A DNA stretch of 64,000 bases from assembly GCA_001780275.1 (NCBI GenBank), contig MFGB01000016.1:92161-156160 (forward strand), read 5' to 3'. Positions 4,291-27,927 of the stretch are shown here, in pieces. This DNA comes from Candidatus Falkowbacteria bacterium RIFOXYA2_FULL_47_19. Lineage in GTDB: Bacteria; Patescibacteriota; Patescibacteriia; Patescibacteriales; UBA12075. How positions within the stretch are numbered: position 1 is the stretch's first letter; the number at the start of each line of letters is the position of its first letter. The notes under the pieces were generated by a model, which had not been told where the DNA came from, searched no databases, and saw only the letters and a program-made list of their open reading frames with translations. The position numbers were made by a program, and so were the translations under genes.

Positions 4291-4842
4291 TTATTCTTGC
4301 TTGATCACTTCGGCGTTTATGGTAATGCGGACTTCGTTACCGACGACCATGCCGCCGCGATCAAGCATTTCGTTCCAGCTGACCCCGTAATCATGGCGGT
4401 TGATGACGGTAGTCGCCTTGAAGCCGGCGCGGATGGTCGGTCCTTTATCCGGTTCATCTTTAATTTGGGGGGTCCGCCAAATGCCGGAGCTTATGAGGGT
4501 CAGGATGATTTTGCGCGTTATGCCGCGAATGGTCAGGTGGCCGAATAATTTAAATTCATTGGCGCCGATCCGTTCGATCTCGTTCGCCTGGAAAATAAAC
4601 GAGGGATAATTCTTAACGTCGAAAAAAGCCGCGCTTTTTAGATGTCGATCGCGATCCTTATCCCCGGTCCAGATTTCGGTAGCGTCCATGATAACATCCA
4701 CGATAATTTTTTGGGGGTTGTCGAAATCAAAATCAAGCGTCCCCCGGATATTCGGGAGACGGCCGCAAACATCAGTGATCATCATGTGCCGTACGCAGAA
4801 TTCCGCTCCCGTGTGAGCAGGTTCAAAAATCCATTTTGACAT
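4291..4842 (-). CDS. YceI family protein (polyisoprenoid-binding-like)
   Basis: The 183-aa product shows the YceI-like pattern (HxxxExCVRHMMIT...RDRHLKSAAFFDVKNYP). Confidence 0.65.
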   Translation of the reverse strand: MSKWIFEPAHTGAEFCVRHMMITDVCGRLPNIRGTLDFDFDNPQKIIVDVIMDATEIWTGDKDRDRHLKSAAFFDVKNYPSFIFQANEIERIGANEFKLFGHLTIRGITRKIILTLISSGIWRTPQIKDEPDKGPTIRAGFKATTVINRHDYGVSWNEMLDRGGMVVGNEVRITINAEVIKQE

Positions 4843-5277
4843 AATTTTATCGGCTAGAATTAGGGGTCGGGATCGGTTTCTCGGGATTTAAATTAACTTT
4901 AATATATAAATATATAATAAATTTATTAATATATAATTATAATTTTCGCCTTTTCGTTACTAGAACTTAAAATCAAGAAATAGAAATATTTTTAATATCT
5001 CGTTAACGTTTTCACAATATAATCTCATTATAATTAAAAAGCAGGTGATTTAAAAAAAACCTGTCTGAACCGCCGGTCCGTTTGCGGAATCCCAAGATGA
5101 AGCCGGAATCTCCGGATAAATTCGTCTTTCCGCGGGCCGGTCGGTTTTTTTTATTGCCGAAAAATTCCGTTAGCGTGACTAATTTGCGATTAACTATATT
5201 ATAATCGCCTTATAACAAAAATTATATACCATTATAACCGTAAGGATCAGATCATAAAATTATTTAAAATTAAATTT

Positions 5278-6213
5278 ATGAAACCATTCAAAATGAACGA
5301 CGGTTACGGTACGTCCGTCGCCATCGCCCTCGTAGCTTTTGTCATCGCCGCGGGAGCTTTGTATTTTGCCATAGACGCAAATTCGACGGCCTGGACGAGC
5401 CGGGGCGGGGAAAGCGTCAATTTGGATCAATTGGCTGATCTGGGATCGGCCATAATGACCGAGACCGAACTTGAGAATAAAATTACCGCCGCGGTAGAGA
5501 AGAAAATCATCGAAAGCATGGATGATGAGGAATACGGCCGGACGGCGTCGGTTCCGGAATCCGATAAAACCTTTGTTCCGAAAGGACGGTTCGCGGCGGA
5601 CCCGCCGGCGATAGTGCCGGAGGCCGATAATACGGGGGCTGTATTCGGTTTAGCTCCGACGATTCGGTTAACCGACGCTTCCGGAGAAGGGGTTTTAAGC
5701 AAGGCCTGGCTGGCGGTATATAACGGTATCACGTATCATCGGATCGCCGCCCGGGGCCTGGCCGCGCCCGTCGGTACGGATTATTACGAAGGCTGGCTTG
5801 TACGAAATCCGGATACGCTCGATATGTTCTCTGTCGGTAAAATGAAATATGACCCCGGCGCCGCGGACGCCACCCTGTCGGTCAGGGTCACGGGAGACCA
5901 GGAGGCTTACCGCACGGTTTATGTCACCCTGGAGAAGGATGACGGCGACCCTATGCCGGGCAAAGTCGTACTAAAGGGCACTTTTTGGCCCGAGACCGAT
6001 CTAGCCGTTACCGATAAAATGATCGAAAGCTATAAGGCCAATGAAGCAAATAAAGCCGGATTTTCAACTTCCTCGGTCCCTAAAGCCGATAATTCAACCC
6101 AAAGCCTGCTTGAGGCGATGCTAAAAGGCGGGTCCAATAACGATTCTTCGGCCGCCGGTAATTCCGACCCACTAGCTAGCCTAATGCAATTATTGCAAGG
6201 CAGTAAAAAGTAA
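5278..6213 (+). CDS. Hypothetical membrane-anchored extracytoplasmic protein
   Basis: A single N-terminal TM helix (VAIALVAFVIAAGALYFAI) is followed by a 280-aa soluble region with no recognisable motif. Confidence 0.5.
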   Translation: MKPFKMNDGYGTSVAIALVAFVIAAGALYFAIDANSTAWTSRGGESVNLDQLADLGSAIMTETELENKITAAVEKKIIESMDDEEYGRTASVPESDKTFVPKGRFAADPPAIVPEADNTGAVFGLAPTIRLTDASGEGVLSKAWLAVYNGITYHRIAARGLAAPVGTDYYEGWLVRNPDTLDMFSVGKMKYDPGAADATLSVRVTGDQEAYRTVYVTLEKDDGDPMPGKVVLKGTFWPETDLAVTDKMIESYKANEANKAGFSTSSVPKADNSTQSLLEAMLKGGSNNDSSAAGNSDPLASLMQLLQGSKK

Positions 6214-21320: not shown

Positions 21321-21740
21321 ATGCCAACAGTAAACCAATTAGTTAAAAAGGGAAGAGTAAAAGTAATCAAGAAGAGCAAATATCCGGCCATGCAAACTAC
21401 GCTGGACACTTTACATAGGAAAAGGACCGAGCTTCGCAAAGGCGCCCCCTTTAAACGCGGCGTTTGCCTTAAGGTAACCACTACCACTCCGAAAAAGCCG
21501 AACTCGGCTTTACGGAAGATCGCTCGCGTCCGCCTTTCGAACGGCATGGAAGTAACCGCCTATATTCCCGGCATCGGTCATAATCTCCAGGAGCATTCGA
21601 TCGTTCTTGTAAAAGCCGGCCGTACAGCCGATCTTCCGGGCGTGCGTTATAAGATCATACGCGGGGTTTACGATACTACCGGCGTTGAAAACCGCAAACA
21701 ATCCCGGAGCATTTACGGCGCCAAAAGAGCTAAAAAATAA
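21321..21740 (+). CDS. rpsL: 30S ribosomal protein S12
   Basis: [11 protein letters not shown]...[37 protein letters not shown]... Confidence 0.92.
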
Positions 21741-21765: not shown

Positions 21766-22233
21766 ATGAGAGGAAAACCAGCCATTAAGAGAAAAATCGA
21801 GGGGGATAGCCGGTATAACGATACCGATATTTCCAAGTTCATAAATTATATCATGCAAAGAGGCAAGAAAACCGTAGCCCAGAATATCGTTTACGGTGCT
21901 TTTGAAGTAATTAAAGAAAAAACCAAGCAGGATCCCAGACATATATTCAATAAAGCCTTAAAGAAGATTTCTCCGACCCTGGAGGTCCGCGGTCGGCGTA
22001 TCGGCGGCGCCAACTACCAGATTCCTTACCAGGTGCGGGGGGACCGGCGGTTTACTTTAGGCTGCCGCTGGCTTATTGGCGCGGCTAAAGAGAGAAAAGG
22101 GAAGCCGATGTACGTTAAACTGGCCGACGAAATATTAGCCGCCTCCGAAGGAGAGGGTGCCGCTATCAAAAAGAAAGAAACCGTCCACAAGATGGCCGAA
22201 TCGAATCGCGCTTTCGCGCATTTCGCCCGTTAA
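21766..22233 (+). CDS. rpsG: 30S ribosomal protein S7
   Basis: A conserved S7 signature (the KRE/GKK region) and the canonical position after rpsL. Confidence 0.92.
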   Translation: MRGKPAIKRKIEGDSRYNDTDISKFINYIMQRGKKTVAQNIVYGAFEVIKEKTKQDPRHIFNKALKKISPTLEVRGRRIGGANYQIPYQVRGDRRFTLGCRWLIGAAKERKGKPMYVKLADEILAASEGEGAAIKKKETVHKMAESNRAFAHFAR

Positions 22234-22405: not shown

Positions 22406-24496
22406 ATGGCACGAGAATATAGTTTAGAAAAAACCAGGAATATCGGCATCATGGCGCATATTGATGCCGGCAAGACCACCTTTACGGAGCGGGTGCTTTT
22501 TTATACCGGCAAGAAGCATAAGATCGGAGAGGTGCACGAAGGGGCCGCCGAAATGGACTGGATGGAACAGGAAAAAGAGCGCGGCATTACCATTACTTCA
22601 GCCGCCACCACCGCTTTTTGGAAGAATCATCGCATCAATATAATAGATACCCCCGGCCACGTTGATTTTACGGTGGAAGTGGAGCGGTCGCTTCGGGTCC
22701 TGGACGGCGCTATTGCCGTTTTCGACGGTTCCGCCGGAGTCGAACCCCAGTCCGAAACGGTCTGGCGGCAGGCCGATAAGTACCATGTGCCCAGGCTTTG
22801 TTTCGTGAATAAAATGGATAAATTAGGGGCCGATTTTTTCATGAGCCTGAACTCTATCCGGGAAAGGCTAAACTCTAAGGCTCTCGCTTTTCAATTGCCG
22901 ATCGGCGCCGAAAATACGATGAAAGGCGTGGTCGATCTTTTGACCCGGAAAGCCTATGAGTTCAAGGGTAATTTCGGAGAGCAGGTCGCTGAGGTGCCGG
23001 TTCCGGACGACATGAAAGATAATATGGAAAAATACCGCAATGAACTAGTCGAACGGGTGGCCGAATGCGACGATAAATTGACGGAAAAATATTTAAGCGG
23101 AGAAGAATTGAGCGTGGAAGAATTAAAGGCGGCGGCCCGCAAGGGAGTGGTTACCGCTGAATTATTCCCGGTATTCGCCGGTACAGCTCTCCAGAATATC
23201 GGCGTGCAGCTGGCTTTGGACGCGGTCATCGATTACTTGCCTTCGCCGATCGACGTGCCGCCGATAATCGGGCATGACACGAAAGACGAGGAAAAGAAGA
23301 TAGAGATAACCGCCAACGACGGCGCTCCTTTTGCCGGCCTGGCGTTCAAGATCGCGACGGATCCTTTCGTGGGAAAATTATGCTTTGTCCGGGTTTATCA
23401 GGGGGTGCTTTCCGCCGGTTCTTACGTATTAAATTCCTCGACCGGCAAAAAAGAACGCATCGGCCGTTTGGTCAGGATGCACGCCAATCATCGGGAAGAG
23501 ATCAAAGAGGTTTACGCCGGGGATATCGCGGCCGTCATCGGGCTTAAGGGTACGACCACCGGACATACTTTATGCGACGAGGACCGCCAGGTTCTTTTGG
23601 AATCCATTAAGTTCCCGGAACCGGTCATTAAGATCGCCGTGGAACCCAAAACCAAGGTTGATCAGGAAAAAATGGGCGTCGCTCTCCAGAAGCTGGCCGA
23701 AGAGGATCCGACTTTCCGGGTTGAAACCGACGAAGAAACCAACCAGACCCTTATTTCGGGTATGGGTGAATTACACCTGGACATTATCGTGGATCGCATG
23801 AAACGGGAATTTAAGGTTGAAGCCAATATCGGCAAGCCGCAGGTGTCTTACCGCGAGACCATCAGGCAGATGGCGGAAACCGAAAGTAAATATATCAAGC
23901 AATCCGGCGGCCGCGGTCAATACGGCCATTGCTGGCTCAGGGTAGAACCGAATACGGAAGAAAAGAAGAACGAGTTCGTGGACGCCATCAAAGGCGGAGT
24001 TATTCCAAGAGAGTTCATTCCGGCCATCCAGAAAGGCGTTGTTGAAGCGGCTGATCAGGGCGTAATGGCCGGCTATCCGATGGTGAACATAAAAACGACC
24101 GTTTTTGACGGTTCTTATCACGAAGTTGATTCGTCCGAAGCGTCTTTCAAGATGGCGGCTATATTGGGTTTTAAGGAAGCTTGCCGCAAGGCCAGTCCGA
24201 CCCTTCTGGAACCGGTCATGAAAGTAGAGGTGGTCACGCCGGAGGAATATATGGGCAACGTTATCGGCGACCTGAATTCGAAACGGGGTCAGATCGGACA
24301 GATGACCAACCGTATTAATGTTAAGGTAATTGACGCGATGGTGCCTTTAGCGGAGATGTTCGGCTATGCTACCGCTTTAAGATCGATGAGCCAGGGACGG
24401 GCCCAGTATACCATGGAGTTCGACCATTACGCGGAAGTGCCGAAAAACGTGGCGGAAACGATCATCGGCGAAAGAGGCGGAAGCCGGAGAGGATAG
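22406..24496 (+). CDS. fusA: Elongation factor G
   Basis: G-domain motifs AHIDAGKTT and DTPGHVDF. The 696-aa length is typical of EF-G. Confidence 0.95.
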
Positions 24497-24510: not shown

Positions 24511-24539
24511 TTGACATTAAATTTTTAATGTTATAAAAT
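24511..24539 (+). promoter_or_regulatory. Sigma70-like promoter (TTGACA, 17-nt spacer, TAAAAT) for the inserted gene
   Basis: TTGACA at 24511-24516 and TAAAAT at 24534-24539. Confidence 0.45.
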
Positions 24540-24575
24540 AAAACCAGGCTATTTTAACATCAGAATAGATACTAT

Positions 24576-25082
24576 ATGTCGAATCAATTGCAAAAAGCGA
24601 TAAAATTAGCCAAAAAAACAGGAGATAGGTTAATAATTTTCGATTCCGGCAAGACCGATAACGCCTATGTGGTCATGTCCCTGGACGAGTACGAAAAATT
24701 AATTGTAGGTGGTAGTGAAGTAAGGGGATTGACAGAAGATGAATTACTTGATAAGATAAATCGCGACATCGCTATTTGGAAAAGTGAACAGGATTTTGAC
24801 GATTATAAACCGCGTAACAGCCATGGCCGGGATATAAGGGGGATCGAAGAATATAAAAGGACCTACCAAAAAGACGGATATGCCCCTAAGCCGGATTATT
24901 CGCGCCTGGAAGAGGATCGGAGCCGTAAAATATCATATCCTGAAACCGACAATGAACAGGAAAAATCCGCGGAAGTTTACGGTAAAAAAAGACATTGGAT
25001 GATCCCCCGCGAGCGGAAAGAGGGAGCGGAAGAGATAATCGAAGAAGATCGCCAGTATCTGGAAGATGTCGATAATTTTTAA
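24576..25082 (+). CDS. Hypothetical protein inserted between fusA and tuf; N-terminal region is Phd/YefM-antitoxin-like (inference), C-terminal part is charged and low-complexity
   Basis: The 168-aa product has an N-terminus LIIFDSGKTDNAYVVMSLDEYEKL that resembles the Phd/YefM beta-alpha pattern. The gene has its own promoter. Confidence 0.45.
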   Translation: MSNQLQKAIKLAKKTGDRLIIFDSGKTDNAYVVMSLDEYEKLIVGGSEVRGLTEDELLDKINRDIAIWKSEQDFDDYKPRNSHGRDIRGIEEYKRTYQKDGYAPKPDYSRLEEDRSRKISYPETDNEQEKSAEVYGKKRHWMIPRERKEGAEEIIEEDRQYLEDVDNF

Positions 25083-25206
25083 AACATAAATAAATTTTTA
25101 TAAACTTTAATTTATTACGGCTGGGTAGTAACCCCGCAAAATTTGAGGCGCAGGGATCGCGTTTCGATCCTTCTCAAATTTGACGTGGGGGCCGTAGGCA
25201 AGAAAC

Positions 25207-26397
25207 ATGGCAGCAGAAAAATTCGAAAGATCAAAACCTCATGTCAACATCGGCACCATCGGCCACGTTGACCACGGTAAAACCACCTTAACGGCGGCCA
25301 TTCTCAAGGTAATGGCTTCGAAGGGTTTTAAGGCTTCCACCAAGAACGTCGACCAGATCGATGCCGCTCCGGAAGAAAAAGCCCGCGGTATCACGATTGC
25401 GACCGCTCACGTCGAATATGAATCGGAAAAACGCCATTATGCCCACGTAGATTGTCCCGGACACGCTGATTACGTCAAAAATATGATCACCGGCGCGGCG
25501 CAGATGGATGGAGCTATCTTGGTCGTAGCCGCTACCGACGGCCCGATGCCGCAGACCCGGGAGCATATCCTCCTGGCCCGCCAGGTAGGCGTACCGAATA
25601 TCGTTGTTTTCCTTAATAAGTGCGACATGGTGGAAGACAAGGAATTGATCGATCTCGTAGAGGAAGAGATCCGCGATCTTCTTAAAAAATACGAATTTGA
25701 CGGCGATAACATAAAAATAGTCAGGGGTTCCGCCTTAAAGGCCCTGGAGAATCCGGCAAGCGAAGACGGCGAAGCCGTTTTCAACCTGATCAAAGCGGTT
25801 GATGAAACTTTCCCGGAACCGATTCGCGACATAGAACATCCGTACCTTATGCCGATCGAAGACGTGTTTTCGATCGAAGGGCGCGGCACGGTCGTAACCG
25901 GCAGGATCGAACGCGGTATAGTCAAGATCAATGAAGAGGTGGAGATCATCGGTTTGGGAGAAACCAGGAAAACCGTAGTTACCGGCATCGAGATGTTCAA
26001 TAAGCAATTGGACGAAGGCCGGGCCGGAGATAACGCCGGCATTCTTCTCCGCGGCATAAAGAAAAATGAAGTGGAAAGAGGCCAGGTGCTAGCCAAGCCG
26101 GGTAGCGTTACCCCGCACACCGAATTCGAGGCCCAGGTTTATATACTTTCCAAGGAAGAAGGCGGACGCCACAAGCCGTTTTTCAAGGGCTATAAGCCGC
26201 AGTTCTATATCCGCACCACGGACGTTACCGGAGAAGTGGAATTGCCGGAAGGCACTGAGATGGTCATGCCGGGCGATACGATTAATTTCAAGGTAAAGTT
26301 GATCAGTCCGGTGGCTCTTGAAGAAAAACAGAGATTCGCCATTCGCGAAGGCGGCCGGACCGTAGGCGCCGGAGCCGTTGTTAAGATCATTAAGTAA
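25207..26397 (+). CDS. tuf: Elongation factor Tu
   Basis: [21 protein letters not shown] and NKCD motifs. The product is 396 aa. Confidence 0.97.
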
Positions 26398-26516: not shown

Positions 26517-26891
26517 ATGCCAGAAGACAAAGTTAAATCAATAAGCAAAAAGGGAGAATCCGAAGCCGACGGCGGCCATAACGAATCCAAGCAGAAGATC
26601 CGCATCAAAATAAAGGCTTTCGACCACAAGATAATCGATCAGTCGACCAAGACCATTATCGATACCGCCACCAGGAGCGGCGCCCAGGTATTCGGTCCGA
26701 TCCCGCTTCCGACCACGAAGAAGAAATATACGGTAAACCGTTCGACCTTCGTCCATAAGAATGCCCGCGACCAATATGAAATGAGGACGCATAAGCGGCT
26801 TATAGATATAATCGAACCGACCGCCAAGACCATCGAAGATCTGACCAACTTAGGCTTACCGGCCGGAGTGGACGTTGAAATAAAAATGTAA
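26517..26891 (+). CDS. rpsJ: 30S ribosomal protein S10 with about 25-aa N-terminal extension
   Basis: [19 protein letters not shown]...RTHKRLIDI. Confidence 0.9.
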
Positions 26892-27141
26892 GAGTTATCA
26901 TAATTTGTATTTTTATATATTATAGATAATAGTGATCGTTGCGGTAACTCCCGAACACAAACGACCGGGAAAGTGCCGTAATAAGAATTATTATCGACAG
27001 GAGGAAATAAACCAACATAAGAAACACGAACTTAAATTTCGGTAAAACGATTTTTTGTGCTAAATAAATTTAGCAAGTTCGCTGGTTTTGTTGCAAGACC
27101 AGTTTTTGTTTTAAAAAATAGGGAATTTTCAATATATATTT

Positions 27142-27927
27142 ATGAAATTCATCATAGGCAAAAAAATAGATATGACCCAGATTTGGCAAGGAGAAGAGGC
27201 CAAGGCGGTAACGCGCGTAAAAGCCGGTCCATGTCCGGTGGTTCAGGTAAAGCGTCGTGATAAGGACGGATATGAAGCCGTGCAGCTCGGATTTGGCGAA
27301 AGGAAAGAAAAGAATATTAAAAAGCCGCAAAAGAACCATGCGCGGGGATTGGGCAATTTAAGGAATTTGCGGGAATTTAATTTATCGCGCCCCAAGAAAA
27401 ATGACGGTTTGGAATTAGATCTCAAACGGGGGGATATTATCGGAGTTGACACTTTCGCGGCCGGGGATATCGTCCAGGTTACCGGCACTTCCAAGGGAAA
27501 AGGATTTCAGGGCGTCGTCAAAAGGCACGGTTTTCACGGGCACAATACTACTCACGGCACGAAAGATCAGGTGCGCCACTCCGGTTCGATCAGCGCCGGC
27601 GGCGTACAGCATGTTTTTAAAGGTATGAGGATGAGCGGCCGGATGGGCGGCGACCAGGTAACGGTTAAAAATCTGCGGATCATAGAAGTCGATGCGGCCA
27701 ACGGTATATTATCGATCGAGGGAGCCATTCCCGGAGCGAGGAACGGCTTGGTACTGATACAGGGAAACGGAAAGCTGGAAATAAGAAAAAAGGAAGAAGC
27801 TAAAGAAACAAAAAAAGATAACATTGATAATAATACGGATGAAGCCGTCGCGTCGGTAACGGAGGAAAAAGAGTCTCCGGCTGGCGAAAAAGCGGAAGCG
27901 GACGATAAAAAAGAGGATAAAAAGTAA
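27142..27927 (+). CDS. rplC: 50S ribosomal protein L3 with Lys/Glu-rich C-terminal tail
   Basis: The L3 core (GKKIDMTQIW...GTSKGKGFQGVVKRHGF) plus an extension of about 55 aa. Confidence 0.9.
   Translation: MKFIIGKKIDMTQIWQGEEAKAVTRVKAGPCPVVQVKRRDKDGYEAVQLGFGERKEKNIKKPQKNHARGLGNLRNLREFNLSRPKKNDGLELDLKRGDIIGVDTFAAGDIVQVTGTSKGKGFQGVVKRHGFHGHNTTHGTKDQVRHSGSISAGGVQHVFKGMRMSGRMGGDQVTVKNLRIIEVDAANGILSIEGAIPGARNGLVLIQGNGKLEIRKKEEAKETKKDNIDNNTDEAVASVTEEKESPAGEKAEADDKKEDKK

Follow-up and report, generated by a model that had tools for sequence, protein, structure and literature searches.

In this study, we analyzed a 64,000-nucleotide stretch of DNA from Candidatus Falkowbacteria bacterium RIFOXYA2_FULL_47_19 (the window, from whose first letter all positions below are counted), and examined what lies directly upstream of tuf, the gene for elongation factor Tu (EF-Tu). 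The str/S10 region of the window runs entirely on the + strand, in the order rpsL (21321-21740), rpsG (21766-22233), fusA (22406-24496), orfX (24576-25082), tuf (25207-26397), rpsJ (26517-26891), rplC (27142-27927) and rplD. Here, orfX is our working name for an open reading frame (ORF) of 168 amino acids (aa) between fusA and tuf, which was taken from the ORF list, starts with ATG and encodes a conserved hypothetical protein of Patescibacteria; an earlier note on this DNA had pointed it out, and its position was confirmed. The spacer of 124 nucleotides (nt) between orfX and tuf contains a structured element, the tuf-leader RNA motif (25117-25195). We found that a large group of the ultra-small Patescibacteria, with genomes named Falkowbacteria, Parcubacteria and Buchananbacteria, carries this addition of a gene and, in about 80% of the loci, an RNA, and that tuf is the constant downstream partner of both. 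A clade-wide selected gene and a selected RNA structure are thus attached to tuf, and they share a strong promoter (TTGACA-N17-TAAAAT, 24511-24539). The promoter and all genes, protein segments and RNA elements described below lie on the + strand.

The orfX gene, its position and its promoter

A search of a collection of 5.8 billion proteins identified 653 homologs of orfX (E <= 1e-3), which came from Falkowbacteria, Parcubacteria and 'Patescibacteria group' genomes as well as from many metagenomes; all of them were annotated as 'hypothetical protein', and none had a precomputed Pfam domain. When representatives clustered at 50% identity were searched with a profile, 1,223 clusters were matched, 690 of them at E <= 1e-10. 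Codons were compared with the closest relative (locus L001, 93% identical): 24 of the 34 nucleotide differences fell at third codon positions, and 20 codon changes were synonymous versus 11 non-synonymous. No amino acid was changed in residues 1-75 and 139-168, all 11 replacements being located in residues 76-138. This substitution pattern indicates that orfX is translated and that it contains two constrained modules, which bears out the earlier proposal of a coding ORF.

In GTDB species-representative genomes, 168 orfX loci were confirmed, and 80 of these, all found through orfX, were examined here (loci are designated by L and a number), with neighboring genes assigned by tblastn using the window's own proteins. 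orfX was located immediately upstream of tuf in all 75 loci in which both flanks were present, so that the gene is embedded in the str operon of relatives as well, usually in the order rpsL-rpsG-fusA-orfX-tuf-rpsJ-rplC. Several loci had 0.4-2.6 kb of other DNA between fusA and orfX. In three loci (L073, L078 and L080), fusA was absent before orfX and a 495-aa gene, which we read as NagB-like, took its place, yet orfX still adjoined tuf. Thus, the conserved pair is orfX-tuf rather than fusA-orfX. Many records of metagenome-assembled genomes with this cluster were titled 'uncultured Gammaproteobacteria bacterium' (L002, L003, L005, L006, L014, L024 and others); EF-Tu in these records was >80% identical to that of Falkowbacteria, and the label looks wrong or like a placeholder.

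The promoter upstream of orfX, which had also been noticed before, is of the sigma-70 type and agrees with the consensus at 11 of 12 positions. Since the region contains 11 promoter-like sites versus 9.7 expected, this lone match in the window is not above chance. Among the relatives, 61 of the 75 loci had a match of at least 10 of 12 positions to TTGACA-N16-18-TATAAT in the 150 nt before orfX, which was perfect in 16 loci, the best score in shuffled upstream sequences being ~8.1. A separate tuf promoter in the main group of loci was considered and rejected, because the orfX-tuf spacers of this group scored at shuffle level. The most divergent group (L072-L080) has its own promoter, TTGC...TGnTATAAT, between orfX and tuf. 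Terminator-like hairpins were found in 1 of 60 fusA-orfX spacers, 2 of 73 orfX-tuf spacers, 4 of 71 tuf-rpsJ spacers and 41 of 64 rpsJ-rplC spacers, and a search of the orfX-tuf spacer of the window found none. This arrangement suggests joint transcription of orfX, tuf and rpsJ in the main group from the window-type promoter, which would then effectively be the promoter of tuf. In one subgroup (L011, L012, L014, L015, L023, L024, L027, L031, L034, L040 and L056), a conserved ATATTCT box was observed ~5-15 nt downstream of the -10 element, after a perfect TATAAT; it may be part of the 5' untranslated region of orfX or a signal of the initiation region.

Architecture of the orfX protein and its probable distant relation to Phd/YefM antitoxins

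Conservation was derived from alignments of 31 and 120 family members, and the structure of the monomer was predicted with AlphaFold2 (AF2). The N-terminal core (aa 1-45, 24576-24710) is predicted to form an alpha-beta-beta-alpha, Phd/YefM-like unit, with helices at residues 2-15 and 36-45 and strands at residues 19-22 and 30-33 (predicted local distance difference test, pLDDT, 83-88); T15, G16, D17, Y39 and E40 are invariant. It is followed by a nearly invariant helix, SEVRGLTEDELLDKINRDIAIWKSEQ (aa 47-73, 24714-24794; helix 54-76 in the AF2 model), in which L52, T53, E54, L57, D59, N62, R63, D64, A66 and W68 are identical in all 120 sequences and which is kept even in the most divergent loci (L072-L080). 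A variable, acidic and Tyr-rich linker (aa 74-138, 24795-24989) comes next; it is predicted to be disordered (pLDDT ~46-61), and its length ranges from ~30 to >100 residues across the family. The C-terminal part (aa 139-168, 24990-25079) carries two linear motifs, W-x-I-P-x-x-R-K-x-x-A-E-E (in its family form W-x-I-P-x-x-(R)K-x-x-A-E-E) and E-E-D-R-Q-Y-L-E-x-V-x-F. In other subfamilies the tip reads E-D-x-Y-Y-F-E-x-V, is represented by an acidic-Y-Y-Y stretch in the middle of the linker, or is lost. Where both motifs are present they occur in either order, and in some subfamilies one of them stands alone; judged by this mobility, they would behave as typical short linear docking motifs. The earlier description of everything behind the N-terminal 40 residues as a disordered tail was wrong, as the helix is nearly invariant, the last ~28 residues are conserved, and only the middle third (residues ~75-138) is variable or predicted with low confidence. 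Domain fusions were sought in the longest family members, which turned out to have only longer linkers. Searches of PADLOC and PHROGs with orfX gave no match, which argues that it is not a known defense or phage protein, and a PDB sequence search with the family profile returned chance matches only.

The same note had compared the N-terminal 40 residues with the Phd/YefM antitoxin fold. Against the window protein, Pfam family PF02604 gave E = 0.0018 and 18.5 bits (cut-off 29.8) over profile positions 11-49. Across the family, 42 of the 120 members matched PF02604 at E < 0.01 (best E 2.6e-5) and the next family was matched by only 4 members, so that PF02604 is the sole recurrent family signal for orfX, although it stays below every curated threshold; TIGR01552 was matched by 3 of the 120 members. 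In hhalign comparisons, an alignment of E. coli-type YefM proteins gave 56% probability over 30 columns, a value that is suggestive only, given the low diversity of that alignment, and a single YefM sequence gave 33%; VVMSLDEYEKL of orfX was paired with VLMSLEEYNSL of YefM. Some results weigh against a YefM-like assignment: the Pfam score is below the cut-off, Foldseek searches with the orfX model were not significant (YefM and RelJ appeared only at E ~0.5-1), and the mean pLDDT of the model (67) corresponds to moderate confidence only. In addition, the first beta-strand of the Phd/YefM fold is missing in the prediction. Taken together, the recurrent signal and the alpha-beta-beta-alpha order make a distant homology of the orfX core to YefM probable, and to this extent the resemblance stood; the scores needed to place orfX in the family were not reached.

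A probable relationship with YefM does not make orfX a working type II antitoxin, or the remnant of a recent toxin-antitoxin module between fusA and tuf. The weak PF02604 and TIGR01552 matches are the sole evidence for such a function, and we consider it very improbable. A toxin-like neighbor of the YoeB, Doc, RelE or ParE type was found in none of the 75 loci, in which the gene downstream is tuf and the gene upstream is fusA or an unrelated gene, and this contradicts a functional antitoxin. Furthermore, the position of orfX is fixed across at least 168 species genomes, unlike that of mobile toxin-antitoxin modules; PADLOC and PHROGs, as mentioned above, gave no match; and both the conserved helix and the C-terminal motifs are foreign to YefM. 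orfX thus does not belong among the PF02604 antitoxins: a toxin gene and an operator are missing, and the gene is not mobile. The comparison with Phd/YefM proteins (E. coli YefM, phage P1 Phd) is nevertheless informative. Shared are the local similarity over the beta2-beta3-alpha2 core, a small N-terminal module followed by a disordered C-terminus with a binding motif (putative in orfX), and a gene immediately upstream of that for the presumed partner. On the other hand, orfX lacks the first beta-strand, a toxin gene and a conserved operator, scores below the Pfam cut-off, and is extended by an invariant helix and a long acidic linker; whereas Phd/YefM genes are patchy and mobile, a single copy of orfX holds a fixed place in the str operon throughout the clade.

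If the core is YefM-like, orfX might instead act as a transcriptional autorepressor, with its YefM-like domain bound to an operator in the orfX-tuf promoter and its C-terminal motifs binding EF-Tu as a co-repressor. The regulator-first, partner-second order of the genes is that of toxin-antitoxin operons, and the promoter spacer of the window contains an 8-bp dyad between the -35 and -10 elements (ACATTAAA-TT-TTTAATGT, 24514-24531). This dyad, read from the sequence, is probably not functional, and it is already broken in the closest relative (L001). Among the 61 orthologous promoters, dyads were not enriched (mean arm 4.98 versus 4.73 in shuffled sequences; 3 of 61 at p <= 0.05). An operator in the orfX promoter was rejected because conserved dyads are absent across these promoters. 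Moreover, part of the DNA binding of Phd/YefM proteins is due to an N-terminal strand that orfX lacks, and the N-domain is ~70% identical across loci whose promoter spacers are unrelated in sequence. Autorepression therefore appears quite improbable.

The tuf-leader RNA motif and a candidate switch at the tuf start codon

The motif was first found by eye and script in the orfX-tuf spacers of all loci, and has the consensus 5'-ACGGC-UGG-[P2 hairpin]-aARwAA-CYYY...[P3 hairpin]...RRRG-GYCGU-3'. In the window, it consists of the 5' strand of helix P1 (ACGGC, 25117-25121), an invariant UGG (25122-25124), the junction GUAGUAA (25125-25131), P3 (25132-25190) and the 3' strand of P1 (GCCGU, 25191-25195); an uninterrupted 3' strand joins P1 and P3 into a stack. 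P2 is optional, being absent in the window genome, L001, L072 and L076. RNAalifold recovered P1, P2 and P3 from 22 short copies, from which a covariance model (R1) was built. With this model, 64 of the 80 GTDB loci were positive, each with a single copy, which was always on the + strand just before tuf. In the window it matched positions 25115-25197 (21.8 bits, E ~1e-3) and found no second copy in the 64 kb; the low score is due to the absence of P2.

Covariation showed that this structure is under selection. In 65 distinct sequences, 96.9% of the cells were paired and 10 of the 12 pairs had compensatory changes, a result that none of 500 shuffles equaled and no slid register came close to. 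Frequent G-U pairs fit the + strand only, which identifies the motif as RNA. U8, G9, G10 and two A residues before P3 are invariant in all 67 sequences, and the first three pairs of P3 strictly keep a pyrimidine on the 5' strand and a purine on the 3' strand. In the window, the 124-nt spacer folded with a minimum free energy (MFE) of -40.5 kcal/mol (z = -3.66), and none of 200 shuffles was as stable. The claim that a structured element precedes tuf was thus confirmed. Both stems of the nested hairpin by which it had been described, namely an outer stem AAAUUUGAG/CUCAAAUUU (25139-25147 / 25173-25181) and an inner hairpin GGAUC-GCGUUUC-GAUCC (25154-25170), are present in the sequence and in the MFE fold. 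This hairpin (25139-25181) is not the element itself; it is a lineage-specific, non-conserved distal extension of P3 within the larger motif, which differs in length and sequence in every other locus and whose outer stem is already interrupted by an A-C mismatch in L001.

Hairpins arise easily in AT-rich intergenic DNA, and since the two hairpins named in the note are not conserved, they might be read as chance structure, a degenerate tRNA or an intrinsic terminator. The enclosing motif almost certainly is none of these, as it covaries and has one covariance-model match per locus. ARAGORN found no tRNA gene in the window and Rfam RF00005 had no match there, in line with the earlier rejection of a tRNA remnant. 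P1 is followed by A-rich sequence without a U-run, and the only terminator-like matches in the 73 spacers, two in number, lie inside P2. None of the 4,227 models of Rfam 15 matched the window leader at gathering score or E <= 10, and Rfam found nothing in 16 loci with canonical copies except a tRNA in L014.

The motif is located at the edge of the tuf ribosome-binding site, the distance from the 3' end of P1 to the tuf AUG being 10-16 nt in the main group of loci and 19-22 nt in the divergent one. It keeps this place next to tuf where DNA has been inserted after orfX, as in L014 (a tRNA gene), L025 (two genes) and L020. With a fixed coding-strand position before one gene family and with covariation, it has the features of a cis-regulatory leader.

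The inserts were also inspected for their content. The tRNA gene of L014 (4501-4574; RF00005, 56.9 bits) lies between orfX and the leader motif, and a tRNA-like sequence at the same place in L020 (~4480-4560) is a candidate only. The insert of L025 (~4360-5870, ~1.5 kb, between orfX and tuf) contains two small ORFs that look by eye like a HEPN/nucleotidyltransferase pair; a truncated copy of the motif's 5' half borders it on one side and the complete copy next to tuf on the other, as if the target had been duplicated. In L004, L039, L044 and L007, AT-rich short tandem repeats of the type CGAAAAUCGAAAAU / UUACGAUUU are present in the P3 loop or spacer and expand the motif to ~160 nt.

A GC-rich island in AU-rich sequence that stays by tuf despite such insertions could be an element of mRNA processing or stability: cleavage of the transcript within the AU-rich spacer would leave a long-lived tuf mRNA whose 5' end is protected by the GC-rich P1/P3 stack, with little orfX and much EF-Tu as the predicted outcome. 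Processing of the cggR-gapA mRNA in Bacillus subtilis is a precedent for unequal output from one transcript, and the main group has a single promoter, upstream of orfX, and none between orfX and tuf. However, a stabilizer needs no invariant unpaired UGG and AA, and loci of the divergent group (L072, L074, L076 and L077) have a promoter dedicated to tuf ahead of the motif, so that processing would be needless there. We regard this explanation as unlikely.

The position of P1 suggests another role. Its 3' strand can form an alternative helix, P1' (25191-25211), in which GCCGU (25191-25195) pairs with AUGGC (25207-25211), that is, with the tuf start codon and the next two nucleotides, the loop being the A-rich ribosome-binding spacer. 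In the MFE fold of the window, GCCGU is paired with AUGGC and not with ACGGC. In 53 of 57 loci, all five positions of the P1 3' strand can pair with the opening five bases of tuf, and constrained folding gave a mean difference of -0.8 kcal/mol between the start-paired and the P1 state (start-paired minus P1; median -0.7, range -6.9 to +4.1). AUGGC is fixed because EF-Tu starts with Met-Ala. Nearly all variation in P1 is a C<->U exchange at the single position at which either base is compatible with both partners, whereas P3 covaries freely; this is the pattern expected of a strand bound by two partners. The rare P1 variants GCUAU and GCUGU (L074 and L077) still fit AUGGC. Thus, the leader may act as a two-state translational switch on tuf: the start codon would be free in an open state with P1 formed, and paired in a closed state. 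Toggling would tune the translation of EF-Tu independently of that of orfX, and some factor recognizing the invariant junction might set the balance between the two states. In the window and L001, which lack P2, the junction GUAGUAA can in addition pair with an upstream UUAUUAC (25112-25131); this hairpin competes with P1 and favors the start-codon-paired state in the MFE fold.

Three findings weigh against the switch. In L072 and L076 (P1 AGACC/GGUCU), the motif is kept and the complementarity to AUGGC is lost; P1' has only 5 bp, and its two strands are too invariant to show covariation; and the near-invariance of P1 could equally reflect sequence-specific recognition by a protein. Because the second helix is short and its strands hardly vary, we hold the switch as a tentative model, to which we give a little less than an even chance.

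A plain protein-binding operator with a single fold, in which the GCCGU/AUGGC complementarity would be coincidental, is somewhat unlikely. The invariant junction nucleotides, the nearly invariant P1, the strict pyrimidine/purine orientation of the first P3 pairs and the location beside the ribosome-binding site of a translation gene are all consistent with it. Candidate binders would be a ribosomal protein of the S10 cluster, EF-Tu or a factor that normally recognizes rRNA; in the last case, ACGGCUGG...AAC-CYCC may resemble the 3' end of 16S rRNA, GCGGCUGGAUCACCUCC (the 3' strand of helix 45 plus the anti-Shine-Dalgarno sequence); neither the window nor the loci contain rRNA of these organisms. 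On the other hand, no Rfam leader family matches, P2 is dispensable (the window, L072 and L076), and the covaried P1 variants of L074 and L077 still fit both partners.

Known leaders offer parallels to both readings. Like the expression platforms of translational riboswitches and translational T-boxes, the motif has one strand (GCCGU) with two exclusive partners, one of which hides the start codon, and its two states are predicted to be near-isoenergetic; the invariant UGG beside a helix also seems to us to resemble the T-box bulge that pairs with the tRNA 3' NCCA, although we take this as a lead only. Unlike them, it is 40-165 nt long across the loci, has no specifier stem and no recognizable ligand pocket, and can dispense with P2. 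It shares with autogenous leaders (the E. coli S10 leader bound by L4, the S7 site in the str operon, the thrS operator and the ribosomal-protein leaders of Rfam) a covarying RNA at the ribosome-binding site of a translation gene and conserved unpaired nucleotides suited to protein recognition, and differs from them in lacking an Rfam match among the 4,227 models and in preceding tuf. We know of no conserved structured leader family for tuf.

Farther downstream, between rpsJ and rplC (27081-27103), the window contains a terminator- or attenuator-like hairpin of conserved sequence, GCUGGUUU-GUUG-AAGACCAGU followed by a U-run. It is also present in L001, L008-L014, L017, L020, L022, L024 and others, and might attenuate expression of the L3-L4 portion of the S10 cluster. 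S10 (rpsJ) of the window has 124 aa, the first ~25 of which look like an N-terminal extension, and L3 (rplC; 261 aa) ends in a long Lys/Glu/Asp-rich tail; we take both to be longer than their usual bacterial counterparts.

Possible links among orfX, EF-Tu and the leader

The occurrence of orfX and of the RNA motif was compared in genomes and metagenomes. All GTDB loci positive with the covariance model have orfX, having been selected through it. A metagenome scan for the motif plus tuf gave 120 matches, most of them due to chance; 33 carried tuf, and the covariance model matched 29 of these 33 contigs. In all 27 model-positive metagenome loci with enough upstream DNA, orfX was located upstream of tuf. 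Two tuf loci without orfX (L106 and L155; EF-Tu ~70% identical) have no motif. Since the 33 tuf-bearing matches are close relatives, the scan could not sample lineages without orfX. Of the 80 orfX loci, 16 have no motif, their proteins being equally conserved, which shows that orfX does not need the RNA.

As to the function of the protein, its architecture suggests a dimeric anchor that carries a flexible arm with a docking peptide. orfX would be a domesticated relative of Phd/YefM that no longer neutralizes a toxin, and would most likely serve as a regulator or adaptor that docks onto EF-Tu or onto another of the products of its own transcript. Of the two identities offered in the earlier note, a domesticated antitoxin or a factor associated with the ribosome or an elongation factor, both remain reasonable readings of the sequence, and a working antitoxin is contradicted by the lack of a toxin in the 75 loci. 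A design of this kind is known from the bacterial single-stranded DNA-binding protein SSB, with its tip DDDIPF, and from the tails of the archaeal/eukaryotic ribosomal P-stalk, which recruit translational GTPases. In these proteins, as in orfX (whose dimer is presumed), a dimeric anchor and a disordered linker end in an acidic/aromatic tip, and the E-E-D-R-Q-Y-L-E-x-V-x-F and W-x-I-P motifs are likewise short, movable and placed at the end of a variable acidic linker; moreover, the neighbors of orfX code for the two elongation GTPases. orfX has no sequence homology to either, and resembles them in design only. As the target of orfX we favor EF-Tu or a translational GTPase, at a confidence that falls short of even, and S10, the ribosome or DNA are less likely still. 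It weighs against EF-Tu that gene neighborhood is the one link between it and orfX.

The most ambitious version of these ideas would join both parts of the addition. orfX, or an orfX-EF-Tu complex, would sense the EF-Tu pool via the C-terminal motifs, bind the UGG/AA junction and set the leader ON or OFF, and the 'partner-sensing' logic of toxin-antitoxin systems would thereby have been domesticated into a dedicated feedback circuit. At present we consider such a circuit a long shot. Our overall reading is more modest, namely a clade-specific two-part addition to tuf that consists of a docking protein and a leader toggle; we put it forward tentatively, as a possibility not far below an even one.

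Neither orfX nor the RNA motif has a named family in Pfam, NCBIfam, PADLOC, PHROGs or Rfam. Full-text literature searches found nothing on orfX or the leader motif, and in the literature on Patescibacteria ribosome structures no title or abstract pointed to a paper on either. A reused antitoxin-like fold and a structured leader of a translation gene are known kinds of element; their combination, tuf as the target and the possible switch are new. orfX merits an entry in Pfam, and the RNA motif one in Rfam.

Few bacterial proteins are as abundant and as conserved as EF-Tu, and to our knowledge no dedicated partner gene for tuf has been described. A whole branch of the Candidate Phyla Radiation, made up of organisms with minimal genomes and unusual ribosomes, carries both the tuf-linked protein family (~1,200 clusters) and the RNA motif. 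If orfX binds EF-Tu, it would be a new accessory protein of a translation factor and would clearly exemplify the domestication of an antitoxin. The RNA, if it is a switch, would represent a new class of translational regulator, directed at a core translation factor. Finally, if the two form a feedback circuit, antitoxin-derived logic would control the most abundant protein of the cell in bacteria with reduced genomes.

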